Below, piece by piece: positions 19,882 through 30,908 of a stretch of 35,642 nucleotides of DNA (the first letter of the stretch is position 1; every line of letters begins with the position of its first letter). A program made the position numbers and the translations under genes. Source of the DNA: Candidatus Wolframiiraptor gerlachensis (lineage in GTDB: Archaea; Thermoproteota; Nitrososphaeria_A; Caldarchaeales; Wolframiiraptoraceae); assembly GCA_021323375.2 (NCBI GenBank), contig JAJPCT020000008.1, forward strand, positions 1 to 35,642, written 5' to 3'. The notes beneath the pieces were generated by a model that saw nothing but the letters and a program-made list of their open reading frames with translations, ran no database searches and was not told the DNA's origin.

Positions 19882-22785
19882 ATGTGGTGTGCGTGGATCA
19901 TGAAGGCGAGATCCCCGATGCCCTATGAGGAGAAGTGGGCTAAGAGATGGCTGGAGGAGAGGGTATTCGAGGCGGATCCGATACCAGGCGCGCCGAAGAT
20001 CTTCGTCTGCGTCCCATACTCTTATCAGAATGCTCCACTCCATGTCGGCCACGGCTTCACATACACGAGAGGCGATGCTTATGCTAGGTTCAAGAGGATG
20101 CAGGGCTATAATGTCCTCTTCCCATGGGCTTGGCACTGGACTGGCGAGGCTGTCGCTGGGACATGTGAGAGGCTGAAGAGGGGCGATGAGGCTGTCAAGA
20201 GGATGCTTGTCGAGATAGATGGCGTCCCCGAGGAGCTTCTGGAGAAGTTTACGGACCCGGCTTTTGTCACGAGATACTATACTGAGGAGAATCGCGAGGT
20301 TGTCAAAGCCATGGGCTTCTCCGTGGACTGGAGGAGGGAGTTCTACACCACAGACCTACACCCATATTATAGCAGGTTCATAGAGTGGCAGTATATCACG
20401 CTGAGGAACCTAGGCTATGTAGCAAAGGGAAGACATCCGGTGGTCTGGTGCCCGAGATGTGAGAGCCCAACCGGAGACCATGATAGGCTGGTTGGCGAGG
20501 GCGTCTCCCCGGAAGAATACACCCTCGTCTACTTCAAGCTTGATGAGTATGATGCCTTCCTAGCGGCGGCCACGCTCAGGCCTGAGACCATCTTCGGCGT
20601 CACGAATATCTGGATAAACCCGAGGAGCGAGTATGTCTTGATCGAGGTTGATGGTAAGAGGCTGATAGTCTCGAGGCAGGCGGCTGAGAAGCTCCAGCAC
20701 CAGATGAAGGTCAAGGTGACCGAGAGGATTGACCCGGAGAAGCTTATTGGAAAATTCGCGGAGGCGCCGATAACAGGCGTCAGGATACCAATATTCCCGG
20801 CGGATCTGGTCGACCCCGACTTCGGCTCCGGGGTTGTTTACAGCGTTCCAGCCCATGCACCATATGATTACGCAGGGATAGTAGCGTTGAGGAGGAATGA
20901 AGAGAGGCTGAGAAGATATGGAATAAAGGAGATCGTGGAGAGCATCAAACCTATCTCGATAATCAGGGTTCCGGGGTATGGTGACTACCCGGCGGTCGAG
21001 GAGGTTGAGAGACTCGGGATAACCTCTGACACAGATCCGAAGCTTGAGGAGGCCACGAAGACCATCTACTCGAAGGAGTTTCATAGCGGGGTCATGAAGG
21101 AGAATTGTGGGGAATATGCCGGGAAGAGCGTCGCTGAAGCCCGTGATCTGATGAAGCAGAGGCTGATAGAGCTCAGGCTCGGCGGAGTGATGTGGGAGCT
21201 CCCCGAGAAGGTTGTATGCAGATGCGGAACCGAGACGGTAGTAAAGATAGTTGAGGACCAGTGGTTCTTGAGATACTCGGACCCGGAGTGGAAGCGAAAG
21301 GTGAAGGAGCATATAATGAGGATGAATATTTATCCGGAGGAGGCTAGGCAGTGGTTCCTCAATGTCGTGGACTGGCTCAGGGACTGGGCCTGTGCCAGGA
21401 AGACTGGGCTTGGGACTAGGCTTCCATGGGACCCGAACTGGATCGTTGAGACGCTCAGTGACTCGACGATATATCCGGCCCTCTACACAATAAGCAAGTA
21501 TCTCAATCTCGGGATTGTTAAGCCGGAGCAGCTCACCTTCGAGGTCCTAAACTATGTCTACTTGGGGGCTGGGGATCCATCCGAGATTGCTGCGAGGGTC
21601 GGCTTGAGCGAGAGCATCCTGAGGCAGATGAGGGAGGAGTTCCTCTACTGGTATCCCGTGGATATGAGAATCTCGGCCAAGGAGCTCGTCCCCAATCATC
21701 TCACCTTCTACATCTTCCAGCATGTGGCGATATTTGAGCCGAGGCATTGGCCGAGGGGGATCGGTGTCAATGGCATGGTCAAGATCGAGGGGGAGAAGAT
21801 GTCGAAGAGCAAGGGCAACTTCATACCATTGAAGAGGGCGATTGAAATCTATGGCGCGGATGCGACGAGGATGACCCTCCTCCTCGCCGCCGAGGATCTC
21901 GATGACCCAGATTGGAGGGATAAGAATGCGAGGGAGGCCATGAGGATGCTCGAGACGATTCTCAAGATATGTGAGCAGGTTGCCTCAATTGAGGAGGCTG
22001 AGGAGAGTGAGGCAGATGCATGGCTCCTATCAACCCTACAGCGCAGAATCGAGAGGATAACATCCAACATGGAGGTATTAAAGACTAGAACCGCAGCCTC
22101 AGAGGCTATCTACGGCCTCTACAACGACTGGAAGTGGTATCTTAGGAGGAATGGTGGGAGGATTGGGAGGGCGGCGAGGATCTTTATGGAGACTTGGATC
22201 AAGCTCCTAGCGCCATTCATACCATTCACGGCGGAGGAGGCTTGGAGTATTCTGGGGAAGAGTGGCTTCGTCTCGCTGGAGAGATGGCCAGAGCCTGATA
22301 AGAGGTTGATAAATGAGGTCGTGGAGCTGAGGGAGGAGATCCTGACAAGGCTCATGGAGGATGTGAGGAGCATAATCGAGGTCTATAGGAGGAACCCGAG
22401 GCGCGTGATAATCTACTTGGCGGCGCCGAGCAAGATCCGGATGCTGGAGAAAGCGCTTGAGATCTTGGATGCCAGGCCGCATAACCCCGTCGGCGAGCTG
22501 ATAAGGTGGATCATGAGTGAGAGGATCATCGAGGCTAAGAAGGCGCCAAACATGGCGAGACTCATCTTCGACTTGATCTCCGCCTACTCCTCGAGATATG
22601 CGCGTGAGGCGATATTGGAGGTGGCTAAGAGTGAGAAAACATTCTATGAGAGGGCGAGAGATTTTCTGGAGAGGGAGCTTGGAGCACTCGTGGAGATATA
22701 TGAGGAGGGCGCAGAGGGGATCTATGACCCGAGGGGTAAGGCCTTATCCGCCCTGCCATTAAGGCCAGGGATTTATGTTGAGTAG
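19882..22785 (+). CDS. leuS: Leucyl-tRNA synthetase, archaeal type (real start probably the ATG at 19900 or 19918)
   Basis: HVGH, TLRPET, SVPAHAPYD, SDSTIY and KMSKSKGN motifs. Confidence 0.96.
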   Translation: MWCAWIMKARSPMPYEEKWAKRWLEERVFEADPIPGAPKIFVCVPYSYQNAPLHVGHGFTYTRGDAYARFKRMQGYNVLFPWAWHWTGEAVAGTCERLKRGDEAVKRMLVEIDGVPEELLEKFTDPAFVTRYYTEENREVVKAMGFSVDWRREFYTTDLHPYYSRFIEWQYITLRNLGYVAKGRHPVVWCPRCESPTGDHDRLVGEGVSPEEYTLVYFKLDEYDAFLAAATLRPETIFGVTNIWINPRSEYVLIEVDGKRLIVSRQAAEKLQHQMKVKVTERIDPEKLIGKFAEAPITGVRIPIFPADLVDPDFGSGVVYSVPAHAPYDYAGIVALRRNEERLRRYGIKEIVESIKPISIIRVPGYGDYPAVEEVERLGITSDTDPKLEEATKTIYSKEFHSGVMKENCGEYAGKSVAEARDLMKQRLIELRLGGVMWELPEKVVCRCGTETVVKIVEDQWFLRYSDPEWKRKVKEHIMRMNIYPEEARQWFLNVVDWLRDWACARKTGLGTRLPWDPNWIVETLSDSTIYPALYTISKYLNLGIVKPEQLTFEVLNYVYLGAGDPSEIAARVGLSESILRQMREEFLYWYPVDMRISAKELVPNHLTFYIFQHVAIFEPRHWPRGIGVNGMVKIEGEKMSKSKGNFIPLKRAIEIYGADATRMTLLLAAEDLDDPDWRDKNAREAMRMLETILKICEQVASIEEAEESEADAWLLSTLQRRIERITSNMEVLKTRTAASEAIYGLYNDWKWYLRRNGGRIGRAARIFMETWIKLLAPFIPFTAEEAWSILGKSGFVSLERWPEPDKRLINEVVELREEILTRLMEDVRSIIEVYRRNPRRVIIYLAAPSKIRMLEKALEILDARPHNPVGELIRWIMSERIIEAKKAPNMARLIFDLISAYSSRYAREAILEVAKSEKTFYERARDFLERELGALVEIYEEGAEGIYDPRGKALSALPLRPGIYVE

Positions 22786-22788
22786 CTC

Positions 22789-23451
22789 ATGAGCAGCCAG
22801 CTAAGGATTGATGTCTTGAGGGAGGCGAGGCTCGACCTAAAATTCCTCCTAGAGAGAGGGTATAGGAAGCAAACGGTGCTCAAGCTCGAAGGGGAAAAGG
22901 AACAGCTTAGCAGGGCAGAGAGATCACTCCTCTTCCGGTCAGTTATGCCGGAGAGCGAGGCCGAGATCATAAGATCTAAGATCATTGGGCCTGAGCAGCT
23001 GGTGGGGAGGGAGGATTCTCGTGGATGGATTCAACGTGCTGAATACCGTTGAGGCGATGCTGAGAGGAGAGCCCCTGATACTATGCGATGACGAAGTGCT
23101 GAGAGATATTAGGGAAAAAGCATTCAAAATATAGGCCATCAAATCTGTCAGAGAACGCTCTTAAAAATGATACTAGAGTTCCTGAAGAACGCTCATGTCG
23201 CCGAGGTTAAGGTGTTATATGAGTCCCAGATTAGCAGGAGTGGAGAGGTTGCTGGCTTGACTTAGACACCTCTTATCAGAGATGGGCTTAAGGGGTGATG
23301 CTAGGACCGCGAAAACCGTGGACTCTATACTGGCGAAGTCGGGCGAGATAATAGCAACAAGCGACTCGGCAATACTCCTAAGATGTAGGGCGTCCATAGA
23401 TATACCGAAAACTTGGCGCAAGCCGTGGGAGCGAGGATTATCAGGCTTTGA
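22789..23451 (+). CDS. DUF434-family (PIN-like) protein, frameshifted
   Basis: EARLDLKFLLERGY, then ILVDGFNVL..VEAML.G..LILCDD.VLRD and IATSDS in shifted frames. Confidence 0.72.
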
Positions 23452-23469
23452 TGGGGCGCGTAATCACCC

Positions 23470-24201
23470 CTATCTTATCATGCTCATGATCCTTCTCAGG
23501 ACCTTAGAATGCTTCTCCTCATCACTCTTGATGAACTCGACAAGCAGTGGTGCTGAAGCCTTCCGGGTAGGAGCTTCTCAACCTCCCCTAGGCCTCCCTA
23601 TATGCGCCTCCTCCTCCTTCCTAAGAAGCGACTCAATATCCATCTTCTTAAGCTGGCAGCTTATATCGACGGCCCCACCCCTCTCTATCGCCGAGATAAG
23701 GGTCATCAGGATGTCTGCATGCCCTCAGGCAGTCGCTTGCAAGAGCCCTGGAAGATCATCCGAGCAAGATCATCCTTCAGGTTTATAGCAGCTCTCATGA
23801 ACTCCTCAGCAGACTCCTGCTCGGCCTGAACCCTTCTCCTCAAGAACTCGAGTATTCTCGCAACCTCACCACTCACCTCGCTGGGGACGACCTTAACCCC
23901 TCACTCACCTCAGAGAGATCTCCTGATATTGAAGGCCGCATCATAGAGCTCGCCCTCAGTCAACATTCCCTAGACAGGATCTTCTCCAACGAGCTCGTCG
24001 AGATAGCGCCTCGCCGCCTCATTCTCCATAATCCTCCTCGCGGATGATGAAGCCCTCCTCCTACTCAGGTAAAGCGTTATCGTCGGCTGACTCATCCCCC
24101 AAAACCTCAGCCACCCTCTTCCTAAGCTAAAGCCATGATCCTTCACAAGCCCTCATCGCGAGAATAGCCCTAATACCTGAGACAATCTCCTCCATCCTCA
24201 T
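23470..24201 (-). CDS. Transcriptional regulator: N-terminal HTH fused to a ferritin/rubrerythrin-like four-helix domain (frameshifted; not in ORF track)
   Basis: Manual reconstruction: IRAILA.RLVKDHG...RVAEVLGMSQPTITLYLS (HTH), then QAEQESAEEF...ASDCLRHADIL...RKEEEAH...KSDEEKHSKVL. GGAGGAG RBS before the ATG at 24201. Confidence 0.68.
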
Positions 24202-24255
24202 TAACGACTCCTCCGGGCAAATGACTTAGCGCGTGAAAATAGCACCGTAAAGCAC

Positions 24256-24282
24256 ATGATTTTTACATCATAGAATTTAAAT
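24256..24282 (+). promoter_or_regulatory. Candidate operator ATGAT-N6-ATCAT next to a TATA box (ATTTAAAT) upstream of feoA
   Basis: Inverted repeat at 24256-24271 in the divergent intergenic region; TATA-like box at 24275-24282. Confidence 0.4.
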
Positions 24283-24328
24283 CAGGGTTCCTGGAAAACC
24301 TTCATGGATCGAGGGGCGATGAGCCTCT

Positions 24329-24640
24329 ATGAGGGTTCCATTAACCTCGCTTAGTGAGGCTTCGGGAGGCAGTGGTTGTGGAGATAACATTTGGAGGCCA
24401 TCCCCCAGCACGGGGTTCTGGGGAGGGTTTAGGCGTAGGCTTGGATGGGGCTGGAGAGGTAGAGGCGGCCCTGGATGCAGCGCGGTTAAGAGGCTTGCAG
24501 ACCTCGGCATACTACCCGGAGCCAAGATCAAGGTCGTTAGAAAGGCTCCACTCTAGCGGCCCCATAGAGGTTGGAGGTACATGGCTCGAGATCCATGATT
24601 GGAAGGGGCTTGGGCCTCGAAGATAATAGTGGAGACCTAG
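24329..24640 (+). CDS. feoA: FeoA ferrous iron transport protein with Gly/Arg/Trp-rich insertion (frameshifted)
   Basis: KRLADLGILPGAKIKVVRKAPL, then GPIEV..GS..IGRGL..KIIVE in shifted frames; directly upstream of feoB. Confidence 0.85.
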
Positions 24641-24671
24641 TCTAGCGAGATCCCCTTTGGAGGGCTCTCCA

Positions 24672-26656
24672 ATGAAGTATGCGAGTATCCCAGCTCGTGG
24701 GATCAGAGGCGGCCACGCCGAGCCGGATCTCAGGATAGCCTTAGCTGGTCAGGCGAACGTGGGCAAGAGCGTGATTTTTAATCAACTGACAGGACTTCAT
24801 CAGCATATAGCAAACTGGCCCGGGACCACAGTGGATAAGGCGGAGGGAACGCTATATTACAAAGGCCTGATAATGAAGGTTATTGATCTTCCAGGAATAT
24901 ATTCCGCTGACACATCTCTCAATAGAGAGAAGATCTCTAGTGAACTATATCGCGAGGAGAGGCTGGATGTTTGTGGTTAACGTGGTCGATGCAACAGCGC
25001 TTGAGAGACACTTGATCTTCACTCTCCAGCTTCTCGAGCTTGAGAGGCCGCCCATCCTAGTATTGAAACATGATGGATCTAGCGGAGAAGTATGGCATCG
25101 AGATAGATGTGGATGTGCTTAGGAGGAGCTCAGGGTGCCGGTCGTCATGACGATTGCGACGCGCGGGAGGAGTGTGTACCCAGATACTCGATGCCGCTAT
25201 GAGAGCTCCATAGAACCGGATACTCCCAAGAAGATCCGATATGGCAAGGAGGTTGAGGAGAGGGTTGAGAGGCTGGAGGCCGCTCTGGGGGAGATTGACC
25301 CACCATATCCGAGGAGATGGATCGCCCTAAAGCTTCTGGAGAAGGATGAGGAGATATGGGGCCTCGTTGGGGAGAAGAATCCACGGGTTATAGAGCTGGC
25401 CAGCGAGCTGATCACCGAGCTCGAGAGCATCCATGGACACGACTCATTAATCATAATCGCGAATGAGAGAGCTTGCATCGCGAGCCAGATCGCTAGGAGA
25501 TGCATAAGGATAGTGAAGCCCAGAAAACCAACTCTAGGAGATAGATTCGATGAAATCGCAACACATCCGATACTAGAGTTACATTCTCTGCCGCCATAAT
25601 ATTCGCCGGCCTCTTCTCAATAGTCTTCGGGGTCGGCGGAATAATCGCAGAACTCTCCGAGGAATATTTGTCGGAAATCATGCGCGATGCATGGGTTCGT
25701 ATCCTCGGGAATCAACCCGATATCCGAGGTCGGCTGGTCAGCCATCGAGAGCATCTTATTCCTCCTCGGCCTAGCCATACCATACATCCTCCTCTACTTC
25801 CTCACACATTCCTCTTGGAGAACTGGGGATACCTTGCGAGAGTATCATTTCTAATGGATTCTCCAATGCATAAGGTGCAGGCGTCCATGGCAGGCCGTAA
25901 TCCCCATGCTCCTAGGATTCGGCTGCAACGTCCCAGCATGCCTCGCGGCAAGAATCATGGATACATGGAGGGAGAGGATCATAACGATCTTAATGACGAC
26001 GCTCGTGCCATGCTCCGCCGTAACCGTTGTCGTTATGGGGCTAGTGGGAAGATATTTTGGAGTGTCATGGGTCATTGGGCTCTATCTCCTCACACTCCTC
26101 ATCGCCTTCATCCCTAGGCTCCATCGCCTCAAGAATCCTCCCAGGAGTACCACGTTGAGCTGATAATGGAGATGCCGAGCTACAAGGTGCCAAGCATCAA
26201 GACGATACTAACGATGACTTGGATCAGGCTGCGAGAATACCTTGAGATAGCAGCCCCACTCATAATCGCCATAGGAGCACTCGTAAAAGTCCTAGAAATC
26301 TCCGGCCTGTTAGGACTCTGATATCAAGCACCCTAAGCCCGATAACCTCCAGCTGGCTCGGATTACCAAAGGAAACTGGGTGTCCTACTAATCTTTGGAA
26401 TCCTGAGAAAGGAGCTCATACTAACAACGCTCGCGGCACTCCTCGGGACCATAGACTTCTCACAAGCACTCACGCCAAACCAGATGATAACACTCTCCAT
26501 AGTAACAATACTATACATACCATGCGCCACAATCTCCGTCCTACTCAAAGAAACCGGAACAAAACAACCCTAGTAATCACACTAGCGGAAATAAGCCTAG
26601 CAATACTCATCGGCGGAATAGCCTCAAAACTCCTCCTAACTATAGGAATAAGTTAG
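24672..26656 (+). CDS. feoB: FeoB ferrous iron transporter (many frameshifts)
   Basis: G1 GQANVGKS, NWPGTTV, DLPG, NVVDA; membrane motifs LGFGCNVPA, VPCSA, IMEMP.Y, GILRKEL and LYIPC. Confidence 0.92.
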
Positions 26657-27232
26657 GCTTGCAAAGAAAGCGCACATACCCTAAAAAGAGCCTAATCAGC
26701 CCGCATGACTATATTAGCCTGAGAACCCTTAGAACATTCTAAAAAGAAGAAATTGAAAAATAAGTGAGATTTTTCAAGATGTTAAATGATCGGCTCCGCA
26801 TATGATATTAGGTGTAAAATCTATGAAGTGCTTCGGGATTTGGATCTGATTTCATGGCCAGGCTTTGCTAAGAATTATGATTAACATTGTATCATGTTTG
26901 CGTATATTTCCTTTCTTGTTATGCACCTTGATCGCGTATTTTCGTGATAAAGATTTTACAGACCTCTTTCGAAAAGGTTCACCTTAATGTATGATGTGTG
27001 TAGTTGAGTATTTAATTGGGATGGACATTTGGAATGAGGTTTATTATTTATCACCATAAGTTAGCTGTCCTCATATCATACTGGCAAACTTTCTCAGCAG
27101 ATTAGGAAAAAAGCAGGATGATATAATACACGTTATCCTTCATAAGAATCAGAATGCCAGATTGCCCTAAAAAGCCTCTAAGAATTATATGTGCCAAAAT
27201 AGGCATAAGATGTTCCTCAGAGGTGAAGACCT

Positions 27233-27652
27233 TTAATCTTGTATTGTTATGATCTCGATTCCCATGATGTCTTTGATTACGTCGGTTTTCTTAGCTATGT
27301 CTTTGTCAAGGGTGGCTATGGACTTCGCTCCAATCGCCTTGGCTATAGTAATGTGTAGTAGATCAAGTGTTTTAAGCCTGAGCATGGGAACATGTTTTAG
27401 GCTTTCCTTCACAATAATGTTAAGATCTGTTTCAACTATCGAGGCGCCAAATCTCTTGATAGAGTACATAGCTAGTGGTATTGGTTTCTCCAATTCAGCT
27501 CTTGCTGTAAATGGATGCTAATTCAAGTAGTGTGAGCTGGCTTACAACTCTCCTCTCCATCCAATTGCATAGACATAGCTACCACTTTATCATGATTAGG
27601 GTCCTTTTCATCAACATACGATATGATGACATTTTGTGTCAATATATATCAT
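27233..27652 (-). CDS. vapC: VapC PIN-domain toxin (frameshifted)
   Basis: Reconstruction MIYIDT(N)VIISY..EKDPNH...VSQLTLLELAS...LKTLDLLHI..A...IATLDKDI. Confidence 0.85.
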
Positions 27653-27904
27653 CAATGTCTCTCCTCTTCCAGCATCTTACTCAGTCTACCGTGAGCGATC
27701 CTGAAGCCCGACTTCTCGAGCTCCTCAACATCCCTATACACCTGCTCCTAGAACCCCACTTCCCTCACAACCTCATTCTCAAGCCCTCTTTTCAATGAGA
27801 ATATTGAATGCATGAGACCTGCTTCTAGCAAGCCCATACCTAACCATCTTATCGGCTAGTTCAACAACCTCCTACGAACCTTTAATAGATACCGTAGTGC
27901 TCAT
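27652..27904 (-). CDS. vapB: VapB-type RHH antitoxin (frameshifted; not in ORF track)
   Basis: MSTTVSIKV..EVVELADKMVRYGLARSRSHAFNILIEK...LEEERH*; its stop overlaps the vapC start (TGATG). Confidence 0.75.
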
Positions 27905-27925
27905 TTACCATACATACTTAGTAGT

Positions 27926-27949
27926 TACCATGGTATATAAAGATATACC
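27926..27949 (-). promoter_or_regulatory. vapBC promoter with overlapping palindromes (candidate autoregulatory operator)
   Basis: TACCATGGTA (27926-27935) and GGTATAT-aaag-ATATACC (27932-27949) overlap a minus-strand TTTATATA box about 30 nt upstream of the vapB ATG. Confidence 0.55.
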
Positions 27950-28799
27950 TTAATAGTTTGTGGTATCAAGATGCAGCGATTACATGTTGCCTACAAGCCT
28001 CCTTTTACTATTAGGAACATAGCGTCTTTTATCCAAATTTGAAGGTTTGGAGGCTCCTAAGCTCCGGGAGTTTATAAGTAAGTGAAGAAAAATATCGCCT
28101 TTGGTTTTCTTTTATGTCACAGGGATCTAAAATTTTGTCGCACGAGTTAGCAATGAGTGAGAGGTTTGGGCTTTCGTGAAAAAGTTATGGGCTCTCCTTG
28201 TACCCATGTTCATGGCCGTGGATTCTGCCATCGTGAATAATCCGAAGATGCTCATAGAGACTCTTTTTATAGGAGGCTTCATCCTAGAGTTTAGGAGCCT
28301 GAATAACAGCCCCAATGCATATGTCTCACAATCCTGGAAAGACTTGGGCTATCCGTAGCCCTCTGTAGACTCCCGCTTCGGTAATTTCGGAAACCCGACC
28401 CCAGAAAGTAGAGTAAAAGTGTATTTTCCTTTAAAACTTCTTTATAAGCTTCGATATGGAAGCCGACAAATCAGAAAAATGATGTTAAAAATTAATTCTG
28501 ATTCGAGATGGAGAACCTTTGAGAGAAACAAGGGGTTGCCTGAAGATGGCTCGGTGGCTTTGCATGGCAAGAGATCGCTGAAAAGAACCAAAAGAACAAT
28601 ATGTTATCTCCTCGAGCTGGGCCTATCCCCCTCGCTGTAGGCTATAATGTTAGCAGGATTGCCAGCAGATGAGCAGGATTGCTGGAGAGGGGCCATATTA
28701 ATCATGCTCGAAAACAAAACTTGCAGAACATTTTATACATGTGGATCTGTTTTACTAACAGGCTGTTGCTCACGTTTAGTAAAGATTATATAGGGGTTG

Positions 28800-29641
28800 A
28801 TGGGTTTTGTTCGGACTTATCCCTTCATACCGGATTTAGGGCTGGTCTCCTAGTTTTCGATATTTGTCGTAATCAGGGCCGTTTCTTCCTTCTACTATCT
28901 TTACTACATGCAACCTCAGTTTACTACCTCCACCTCCTCTACCAGCATTCTGCTCACCGATCCGTCTAGGATTTATCTAGAGGTTGAGATCTCAAGTGTA
29001 GATGGTGTCAAGGGGTTTAGTGTTATCGCGGTGATCAATGTGGAGAATGTGGATTTCCTGCTTTTTAGGCCTATTGATGTATGGACCGATGATCTATCAG
29101 CTATTGGCTTGAGTGGCAGGATGCTGCTGGTGTCGAGTAACAATAACTATACGATTGATATGCCATGCATCATGAGGCTTAACGTCTCTTGTCCTCTGAT
29201 AACAGCGGATTATTCCTGGCTATGACATGCCGCCTCAGAATTGAGTCTGGAAGATATCTGAGTATCAATAGAGCTCTCTTGGAGCGAGGCTAAGGGTCGT
29301 GGCGGATTTACCTATCACTCTTTCCAAAGCTGAGGGACTCCACAAGATCCTACGCATTGATCGTCGATAAGACTAAAGCCTCTACGGGCCGGTCAGGCTA
29401 CTACGAGTCCACCGCGCATATATATGGATCTTTGAGGCCGCTGGAGAGGAGTATAGAAAGTTCAGGCTTGAGTCGACATCGCTGGAGACCGAGGAAGATG
29501 ATGGCGGTTCTTGAGGTGCCGGTCAAGAAGCAAGGTTCATACTATCAAGCACTAGTAATAATGAAGGCTAAGCCTGAAGAATATCTGTTAAGAATCACGA
29601 ACTCGATGAGCCTCAAGATAGAGCTAAGAGTGGAAGAATAG
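28800..29641 (+). CDS. Probable single frameshifted membrane-anchored/exported hypothetical protein
   Basis: Hydrophobic segment near 28840-28905, Ser/Thr-rich linker, and co-directional ORF pieces 28908..29225 and 29357..29641. Confidence 0.4.
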
Positions 29642-29968
29642 TCTTTAACAAAATCCGGCAGGGAAATAATCTAATACGGAATCATGTTTTCCCCATCACG
29701 ATTAGGCCTTTTTCAGCTCCCTCAGCCTCCAGCCTCCCTGACCATATTATTGATTCAAGCCTGAATCGCGAGGGTTAACTGCCTAACATCACATCGCAGT
29801 AGATCATCAATTGCCGAGACCAAGCTCCATCCACATAAAATCAAGCATCTTAACAATCGAATAATGCTGCCGCCTCCTAACAACCACCGGATTAACCTTA
29901 AAATACTGTCTCAAACAATCCTCAAACTGATTGGGGTCGGGGACCTCCCCCACTTGAGCAACGATTTT

Positions 29969-30041
29969 GGGCCCGTAGCTCAGCTTGGATAGAGCATCGG
30001 CCTTCTAAGCCGGGGGTCGGGGTTCAAGTCCCCCGGGCCCG
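29969..30041 (+). tRNA. tRNA-Arg(TCT); its 3' half is attL of the integrated element
   Basis: GGGCCCG TA GCTC...GAGC A TCGGC CT TCT AA GCCGG...TTCAAGT...CGGGCCC G. The T-stem appears one pair short, likely from homopolymer error. Confidence 0.92.
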
Positions 30042-30042
30042 C
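30002..30042 (+). repeat. attL core (anticodon loop to 3' end of tRNA-Arg)
   Basis: CTTCTAAGCCGGGGGTCGGGGTTCAAGTCCCCCGGGCCCGC, near-identical to 34321-34361. Confidence 0.9.
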
Positions 30043-30908
30043 TATTTCAAACGGAATAAGCCCTTCACGGCCTGTTAAGAATTCCTTTACGCTGCCCGTT
30101 AAAGGATTTTAACAGGGTTTTAGAGGATTTCCTCCAATATCTCCTGAAAACCTACTCAAGGAAATACGCTGTAGAAATCTATTCTTATGCCCGGAAATAT
30201 GGATATCAAGTCCTTTTTGAGAAGAATCTCCAACATTTTTACCGGCTGAATGATTTTCAACGGCTTGACGCAATGAAGGCCATGAGTCTGCTCTCAAGGT
30301 TTCTAGGCCGCTATGATGATTGGAAAAAATTACGTGAGAGACATGGGCTGAGGTGGGCCACAAATGATAATTTCATCCCATTGTTCAGCCTCCCGCCTTT
30401 TCCTAAGCTTTTAGAGGATGCTAAAAGCATGATAAACGCTTTGGTGGGGAGGTTTCTACATGAGGTGGAGTTTATGGCCCTGAGCGGGCTAAGGCCGCGG
30501 AGGCCATAATGGCAATTTAAGGTCTCTGCAAGATGCATAGAGAAGATTACTTTAACACTGAGCTAAAGGTTTTGGAGCATTTCCGCTTTCCACAGGTTTT
30601 CTTCAGAAGGTGTAAGCGGGCCTTCATCACGGTCCTTAATGATCATCTTTTAATGGCTCTTTGAAAGGCCGCGCCCATCACCTATAACATGCTGAGAATG
30701 TATCTTAGGCGGAGAGGCATGCGCCCATGCTTCAACGTCTTCAGAAAACTCTTTGCAACCTTTCTCTGCGGCAAAGGGTTAGAGGCGGAGCTGGTGGATT
30801 ACCCGCAGGGCTCGCGTCCCAAACACGGTCTTCATGCGCCACTATTTTTCACCTGACGTCAGGCCAGGTGCAGTGGAAAAGTCCGCGCCCTTTACCGGAG
30901 CTGCGTGA
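30043..30908 (+). CDS. Tyrosine integrase C-terminal fragment int(C), frameshifted
   Basis: Pieces MALSGLRP (catalytic R), LEHFRFPQVFFRRCKRAFI (K), FRKLFATFL (R), VDYPQG and VFMRHYF (Y nucleophile); begins directly at the tRNA 3' end. Confidence 0.82.

Follow-up and report, generated by a model that had tools for sequence, protein, structure and literature searches.

Which protein governs feoAB in the Caldarchaeales? Archaeal iron sensing is currently explained by DtxR- and Fur-type proteins, following the bacterial picture, and the regulation of feo in archaea is likewise attributed to DtxR/IdeR- or Fur-type proteins; many archaeal lineages are poorly covered. Such proteins are one-component, dimeric, metal-responsive regulators that bind palindromic sites at iron-uptake promoters, including those of feoAB, and often at the promoter of their own gene. 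The window analysed here, a stretch of 35,642 nucleotides (nt) from Candidatus Wolframiiraptor gerlachensis (contig JAJPCT020000008.1), raises the question through a minus-strand gene that lies head-to-head with feoA-feoB. A preliminary description of this DNA had proposed that the gene fuses a helix-turn-helix (HTH) to a ferritin-like domain and that its product senses Fe(II) or redox state. Computation resolves an intact gene, two domain families, a set of conserved residues, conserved synteny, a conserved inverted repeat and a modelled dimer; from these we infer DNA binding at the repeat, the identity of the metal and the polarity of regulation. Our favoured answer, to which we give about even confidence, is that the protein is a dedicated one-component transcription factor for feoAB and for its own gene, responding to Fe(II) through its ferritin-like site. 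The elements of the locus are as follows.

23470..24201, minus strand: regulator gene, window copy (stop codon 23470-23472, ATG 24199-24201); intact equivalent at G000:C9:21101-21820 (protein P0001)
24235..24241, minus strand: TATTTTC, TATA-like box on the regulator side and putative promoter element, kept as TATTTTC or TAATTTTC in orthologous spacers
24247..24266, no strand: inverted repeat GTAAA-N10-TTTAC (N9 in C9), the proposed operator, conserved and placed between the two divergent TATA-like boxes
24256..24271, no strand: ATGAT-N6-ATCAT, found in this copy only, overlapping the right half of the conserved repeat
24276..24282, plus strand: TTTAAAT, TATA-like box about 47 nt upstream of the feoA ATG and putative promoter element, kept as TTTAAAT, TTTATAT or TATAAG
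24329..24640, plus strand: feoA, frameshifted in the window; the open reading frame (ORF) of 102 amino acids (aa) on C9 is intact (Pfam FeoA, 77.8 bits)
24672..26656, plus strand: feoB, in many frame pieces in the window; the 659-aa ORF on C9 is intact
22907..30046, no strand: error-dense stretch that contains the whole regulator-feoAB finding; clean duplicate at C9:22380-15295, reverse

The regulator gene is present on the minus strand at 23470-24201, with the N-terminal HTH and C-terminal helical domain first described for it. Within 22907-30046 of the window no long ORF survives, and the regulator, feoA and feoB are each split into several frame pieces. The same 7.1 kb is duplicated at 97% identity at the end of contig C9 of the same assembly. 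There, the regulator (C9:21101-21820, equivalent to L002:1629-2348) is a single uninterrupted ORF of 239 aa, hereafter P0001. This copy thus gives one gene for both domains, and intact ORFs in dozens of genomes rule out that the two domains are separate genes: the HTH and the ferritin-like domain belong to a single real gene. The four motifs originally quoted for the helical domain are all present; in the window they do not form one frame and are spread over three, with AEQES in one, SDCLR..H in a second (where an inserted base makes it read SDCLRACRH) and KEEEAH and DEEKH in a third.

Between the two versions of the 7.1 kb there are 77 substitutions and 105 indel events; in 78 of these indels the window version has extra bases relative to C9. 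Single-base events account for 94 of the indels, and 65 of these 94 adjoin an identical base. The regulator gene itself carries 13 indel events (12 frameshifting) and 14 substitutions. It is very unlikely that the regulator-feoAB region of the window is a defunct duplicate whose genes have genuinely decayed into pseudogenes. Two versions in one assembly, one of them unable to encode any of the three proteins, would fit such a history, and some of the substitutions, clustered at 24000-24500, do resemble real strain differences. However, indels that outnumber substitutions and are mostly single bases beside the same base form an error-like pattern, not one of natural decay, and the error-dense part is exactly the part common to C9, with flanking genes intact in the window (e.g., the 967-aa leucyl-tRNA synthetase, LeuRS, at 19882-22785). 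Moreover, at all 12 places listed (there are 53 further such places), the window's extra letters are missing from contigs of four public runs from as many studies, and the largest share of the window's words in any public run is 0.49. Because these contigs are free of the extra bases, we read the breaks as probably consensus or assembly errors from merging two strain versions, and not as biology. The duplicate starts immediately beyond LeuRS, at the end of C9, and runs to 4 bases past the tRNA-Arg(TCT) gene at 29969-30042, beyond which the contigs differ; it looks like two strain haplotypes diverging at the tRNA gene. Convergent with the regulator lies a gene for a 179-aa DUF5616 protein (window 22789-23440; L002:2370-2906), intact on C9 and frameshifted in the window.

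P0001 is composed of an XRE-type HTH (about residues 1-98) and a ferritin/rubrerythrin-like helical domain (about residues 110-239). Residues 19-49 match Pfam HTH_3 (PF01381) with 24.2 bits, for a cut-off of 23. A first search for relatives returned 26 close ones at 42-95% identity, which the sources leave unnamed or call 'predicted transcriptional regulator' and, once, 'rubrerythrin'. P0001 was aligned with 21 full-length close relatives, five truncated sequences being left out (alignment A1). The A1 profile, run against 1.84 billion representative proteins, found 448 at E <= 1e-3 and 69 at E <= 1e-10, with about 50 full-length two-domain representatives among the 448. A second alignment (A2) joins P0001 to 51 two-domain sequences from the best 150 of these 448, single-domain proteins and fragments being left out. 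Among its 52 members, HTH_3 is found in 35 (E <= 0.01) and Pfam Rubrerythrin (PF02915) in 33, with a best Rubrerythrin E-value of 7e-07; relatives in L046 (25.9 bits) and L063 (23.4 bits) exceed the Rubrerythrin cut-off of 22.8. Against the Protein Data Bank (PDB), the A2 profile matches the 'Bacterioferritin' chains 9viw_A (E 1.1e-6) and 9qq4_A (E 8.8e-4), weakly some de novo diiron bundles, and also XRE/HigA/lambda-repressor-like chains. The ferritin/rubrerythrin-like character first assigned to the C-terminal domain is therefore borne out by profile, through the 33 relatives and 9viw_A.

The families of the known iron repressors, Fe_dep_repress (PF01325), Fe_dep_repr_C (PF02742) and FUR (PF01475), are absent from the Pfam hits of P0001 at E <= 1, as is any rubredoxin family; the chain ends at residue 239, right after helix 4. 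An NCBIfam scan of P0001 gave nothing useful (EncB_fam, E 0.34, 10.9 bits versus a cut-off of 90). We rejected a FeoC-like regulator, no such family being among the Pfam hits, and took as chance a match of the N-terminus to a 76-aa 'FeoB' PDB chain (E 0.1). The two halves also occur singly: stand-alone C-terminal domains of about 140 aa exist (P0083, P0085, P0088), and paralogues made up of the N-terminal HTH domain alone (110-160 aa, E about 1e-20) occur almost throughout the phylum, in 362 of 401 genomes, as well as at G000:C6:18594-18887. Matches of two-domain length occur in 68 of the 401 genomes. They are confined to families f1 (the window's own), f2 (the next family) and f3, all of the window's order, and to f14, elsewhere in the phylum; the other matches of that search are the HTH-only paralogues. 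More distant two-domain relatives belong, by their source names, to Thermoproteaceae and Thermoplasmata.

The helical domain holds a strongly conserved set of candidate metal ligands. All 56 distinct regulator sequences from the fetched loci keep R122, E126, D155, S/C156, R/K158, H159, D/E161, E193, D223, E224, K226 and H227. Five of the six ligands of the canonical 2-His-4-carboxylate set (E, ExxH, E, ExxH) are present, namely E126, H159, E193, E224 and H227, and these residues line up with the canonical ligands in the PDB-profile alignments. There, position 156 corresponds to the Glu of the helix-2 ExxH, in agreement with the earlier remark that Cys stands where Glu is usual. Hence, the site is composed of two His, three canonical carboxylates and the invariant D155 beside the missing bridging Glu. 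This Glu is replaced throughout the family, by Cys in P0001 and by Ser in most relatives. Cys156 is exclusive to the feo-linked subclade: 13 of 15 feo-linked sequences carry it, as does one more that is truncated by a contig end.

The AlphaFold2 model of P0001 (predicted local distance difference test, pLDDT, 82; predicted template modelling score, pTM, 0.49) shows an N-terminal helical domain, a disordered linker (residues 98-108) and long helices at residues 110-139, 143-171, 186-198 and 212-238. A homodimer modelled with four riding Fe ions reached an ipSAE of 0.82 versus 0.01 for the best control; in calibration, which had no riding metal, 20 of the 30 proteins whose solved structures are pairs attained the ipSAE mark, as did 1 of the 23 whose structures are single chains. 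At least 68% of contacts are common to the three runs, with partner pLDDT of at least 77. The modelled interface is confined to residues 112-237, and its tightest inter-chain pairs are D223-D155', D223-H159', D155-H227' and K226-D155'. This is what a domain-swapped rubrerythrin-type dimer would resemble, and the good score of the homodimer may reflect the model's memory of solved dimers of that type.

What does this protein control? The head-to-head arrangement with feoA-feoB holds in the window and on C9. A contig search gave 12 loci encoding relatives, from Ca. Wolframiiraptor allenii, W. sinensis, Aigarchaeota and Nitrososphaeria metagenome-assembled genomes. feoA-feoB lie divergently upstream in 10 of them and the other two are cut by contig ends, so that all 10 informative loci carry the pair. 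Throughout f1, feoA and/or feoB lie beside the gene in 11 of 11 fetched loci, down to 36-38% identity. The link to feoAB is thereby confirmed for close relatives and extends to more distant genera of the window's own family. The feoB orthologue in L063 contains the FeoB_N, FeoB_Cyto, Gate and FeoB_C families. As for FeoA (L002:1197-1502; window 24329-24640), the Pfam FeoA match covers residues 51-101 only, and a Gly/Trp/Arg-rich insertion of about 30 residues follows the first 20 or so residues.

Between the divergent genes, one inverted repeat is conserved. Eleven orthologous spacers, the C9 copy and those of ten loci, were aligned. GTAAA and TTTAC are invariant in 11/11, 8-10 nt apart and 66-101 nt before the regulator start, and the flanks vary; GTAAAGTCATGTGTTTTAC is the sequence that carries both half-sites. 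The window contains one match to GTAAA-N8-10-TTTAC for 0.01 expected. The 1.28-Mb genome has two, which are the two copies of this spacer; the genome count is not enriched, since shuffles average 3.1. The palindrome singled out in the preliminary description, ATGAT-N6-ATCAT, does lie at 24256-24271 beside the TTTAAAT box of feoA. It is not kept in the 11 aligned spacers, and the repeat that homologues share is GTAAA-N8-10-TTTAC instead. We rejected ATGAT-N6-ATCAT as operator: even the 97% copy does not keep it, as it needs an inserted T at 24260 and substitutions absent from C9. Among the distant feo-linked genera, one g3 locus keeps GTAAA-N9-TTTAC, one g3 locus is degenerate, and two g4 loci have GTTAATTAAC at the operator's place.

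In the sister clade, linked to Phn-like or FTR1 genes, 14 of 17 spacers hold a related element, GTGAA-N8-TTCAC, at the corresponding position. Each of five sister-family genomes has 2-6 such sites; the 13 additional ones that were examined all fall within open frames of 90 codons or more, and no further intergenic targets were found in these five genomes. The regulator tree follows organismal families, and feo-linked and Phn-linked lineages together form one clade with 100/99 support. One f2 regulator is divergent from an EfeU/FTR1 iron permease gene. The regulators before FTR1 (L057, G114:C14) and before PhnD (L065, G285:C68) are 97% identical and have nearly the same spacer, so that one signal should control both the iron permease and the Phn-like ATP-binding cassette (ABC) system. 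Together, regulator and operator look like a cassette that was re-used before FTR1 and Phn-like genes. A second palindrome, ATAAC-N3-GTTAT, is seen near the phnD-like start in the spacers of L056, L062, L064-L073, L075 and L077, and a related ATAACGCCGTTAA near the regulator side of the same spacers. Outside this clade, in most f14 loci the regulator is divergent from a 143-aa gene considered below, with CoaBC and spermidine synthase genes downstream.

We propose that the two XRE-type HTH of a homodimer would read the two halves of GTAAA-N9-TTTAC. With about 9 nt between the repeat and the feoA box, and about 5 nt between it and the box of the regulator, the occupied repeat would touch the region of the TFB-recognition element (BRE) and transcription factor B (TFB) in both divergent promoters. 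The C-terminal rubrerythrin/sulerythrin-like helical domain would make the dimer, and E126, D155/C156..H159, E193 and D223/E224..H227 would form one metal site per bundle, with ligands from both subunits. Fe(II) from the labile pool, by occupying these sites, would fix the dimer's geometry and thereby switch DNA binding. We prefer the polarity in which binding of the iron-loaded dimer turns feoAB off; alternatively, the apo-form could act as an activator just upstream of the BRE. Fe(II) is favoured as the signal because the feoAB link is conserved, because the regulator and spacer of the Phn-linked clade also stand before an EfeU/FTR1 permease, because the conserved residues are of the metal-ligand type, and because the DtxR-type gene of this genome is tied to a different transporter. 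That gene (G000:C1:7451-7624; L084:1483-1968) codes for 161 aa with Fe_dep_repress and Fe_dep_repr_C, and is the last gene of its own ABC_tran/ABC-3 metal-importer operon, away from feoAB. The whole genome, which is 89% complete, has no FUR-domain match.

A number of results weigh against an Fe(II)-sensing regulator dedicated to feoAB. Some concern the fold. P0001 itself scores 13.2 bits against Pfam Rubrerythrin, below the cut-off (E 0.12), although this weak match runs end to end, from residues 117-232 on profile positions 1-134 of 137. A Foldseek search of the PDB with the P0001 model gave no match at E <= 0.001, its weak rows being mostly ferritins and TetR-type repressors. With VIA-align on 48,161 chains, EncB, rubrerythrin and sulerythrin scored Z 8.4-9.1, level with unrelated helical hairpins: rubrerythrin 1nnq has Z 8.7 (118 residues aligned, root-mean-square deviation, rmsd, 13.2), sulerythrin 7o8d Z 8.4 (124 aligned, rmsd 12.7), and the EncB chains among the top rows Z 8.9 for residues 110-176, no better than the unrelated hairpins. 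A classical diiron site is not assured either, because one of the two bridging Glu is Ser or Cys. Others concern the DNA: the 8-10 nt range of the repeat spacing is unusual for one rigid dimer, and repression and activation look alike because the repeat is upstream of both TATA-like boxes. The DtxR-type regulator of the genome could also act on feoAB. Finally, neighbourhoods change outside f1. Of the 16 re-fetched loci in f2, 15 have the regulator diverging from the genes of a PhnD/PhnC/PhnE-like ABC importer whose annotated substrate is phosphonate, phosphite or phosphate (TIGR01098, 153 versus 112 bits; PhnE, 221.6 versus 216.7); in 11 of these 15 it is also convergent with a ZnuA/ABC-3-type metal importer. 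In f3, a PhnD-like system follows the regulator in two loci and nine have no transporter nearby. In f14 (L045-L055), the 143-aa gene, which matches no Pfam or NCBIfam family, adjoins the homologue in 11/11 loci. Because f2 members stand beside Phn-like transporters, f14 members beside the 143-aa gene, and nine loci lack a transporter, the signal of the family need not be iron.

These observations invite two other accounts of the signal. The same regulator, operator and target could answer to redox, O2 or H2O2 oxidising a permanently bound dimetal site beside Cys156, so that the dimer changes, Fe(II) import is shut and Fenton damage is limited in an anaerobe. Rubrerythrin-type sites do react with peroxide or O2 (PMC3317640, PMC12851003), and the host lineage is described as anaerobic (PMC9246946). 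Cys156, confined as it is to the feo-linked subclade, would give such chemistry a place, and a single redox signal would explain the 97%-identical regulators with the same spacer before FTR1/EfeU and the Phn-like importer. However, most of the family, 2 of the 15 feo-linked sequences among them, has Ser at position 156; the conserved neighbours include no peroxidase, catalase or other oxidative-stress gene; and no partner rubredoxin was seen, either as a domain among the Pfam hits of P0001 or as a gene among the neighbours scanned. We regard this account as unlikely.

It is similarly improbable that iron has no part in the signal and that the protein is a transporter-linked regulator for which feoAB is one of several neighbourhoods, its ferritin-like domain being a dimerisation scaffold with a structural metal, or its dimetal site binding an oxyanion or small ligand. 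The 15 Phn-linked f2 loci, the clades without a transporter beside the regulator and the absence throughout the family of one canonical bridging ligand would all be in keeping with such a role. Yet the candidate ligand positions are invariant in 56/56 distinct sequences, which is more than a scaffold needs, and the feo-linked clade adds Cys156 at the site. Furthermore, three kinds of metal importer stand beside members of the family: Feo, EfeU/FTR1 and, in 11 loci, the convergent ZnuA/ABC-3 cluster. 

Returning to the Fe(II)-responsive regulator that we favour, the preliminary description did not recognise its type as a characterised one, and this still stands: no HTH-ferritin-like or HTH-rubrerythrin regulator is described in the literature searched, most subscription journals lying outside its scope. 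Source databases name the relatives 'hypothetical protein' or 'transcriptional regulator'. The main text of the Wolframiiraptor paper (PMC9246946) contains none of the terms feo, ferrous, rubrerythrin, ferritin or 'transcriptional regulator'. We tentatively suggest, at somewhat short of even confidence, that P0001 founds a so far undescribed class of archaeal metalloregulators, in which an XRE HTH is coupled to a rubrerythrin-like dimetal site across a domain-swapped dimer and Fe(II) occupancy or oxidation sets the dimer geometry and, through it, operator binding. As a module with co-varying half-sites (GTAAA or GTGAA), it would control Feo, EfeU/FTR1 and Phn-like importers in the Caldarchaeales. 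If this is true, a ferritin-like domain used as a sensory module extends the few known families of metalloregulators by a new sensor fold and links the oldest iron-handling fold to gene control. The 239-aa protein and its 19-bp operator would make a compact, thermostable pair. The family also offers a way into transporters without annotation: the PhnCDE-like system has its regulator and spacer in common with an EfeU/FTR1 permease.

Among known systems, the putative sensor is closest to rubrerythrin and sulerythrin. It shares with them the E ... xxxH ... E ... ExxH pattern and the profile matches. Sulerythrin is a domain-swapped dimer with bimetallic sites (PMC12833474), and in the P0001 model the ligand residues likewise contact each other across subunits. 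The regulator differs in its HTH fusion, in the absence of a rubredoxin domain, in the Ser or Cys that replaces the helix-2 Glu with an invariant Asp one residue earlier, and in its place beside transporter genes instead of redox partners. Lacking the rubredoxin domain and one bridging Glu, the sensor counts as a divergent ferritin-like domain, not as a rubrerythrin. In encapsulated ferritins (EncFtn/EncB), the ferroxidase centre is formed at the dimer interface (PMC11202242); the P0001 model sets D155/H159 against D223/H227'. Unlike these proteins, P0001 has four helices per chain and a DNA-binding domain; no encapsulin targeting peptide was seen in it, nor any encapsulin gene among the neighbours scanned. 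In animals, FBXL5 reports iron or oxygen through a hemerythrin-like helical-bundle dimetal site and controls iron homeostasis via protein degradation. The concept of dimetal-site occupancy as sensor is alike, whereas the fold family and the ligand set differ and FBXL5 is not a DNA-binding regulator. With DtxR/IdeR/MDR1 and Fur, the proposed regulator would have in common a one-component, dimeric, metal-responsive action at a palindromic site of an iron-uptake promoter. In contrast to them, P0001 is devoid of Fe_dep_repress, Fe_dep_repr_C and FUR, and carries an XRE/HTH_3 DNA-binding domain with a helical carboxylate/His sensor. It would thus be functionally akin to DtxR or Fur while sharing neither fold, a predicted one-component metalloregulator with a new sensor fold.

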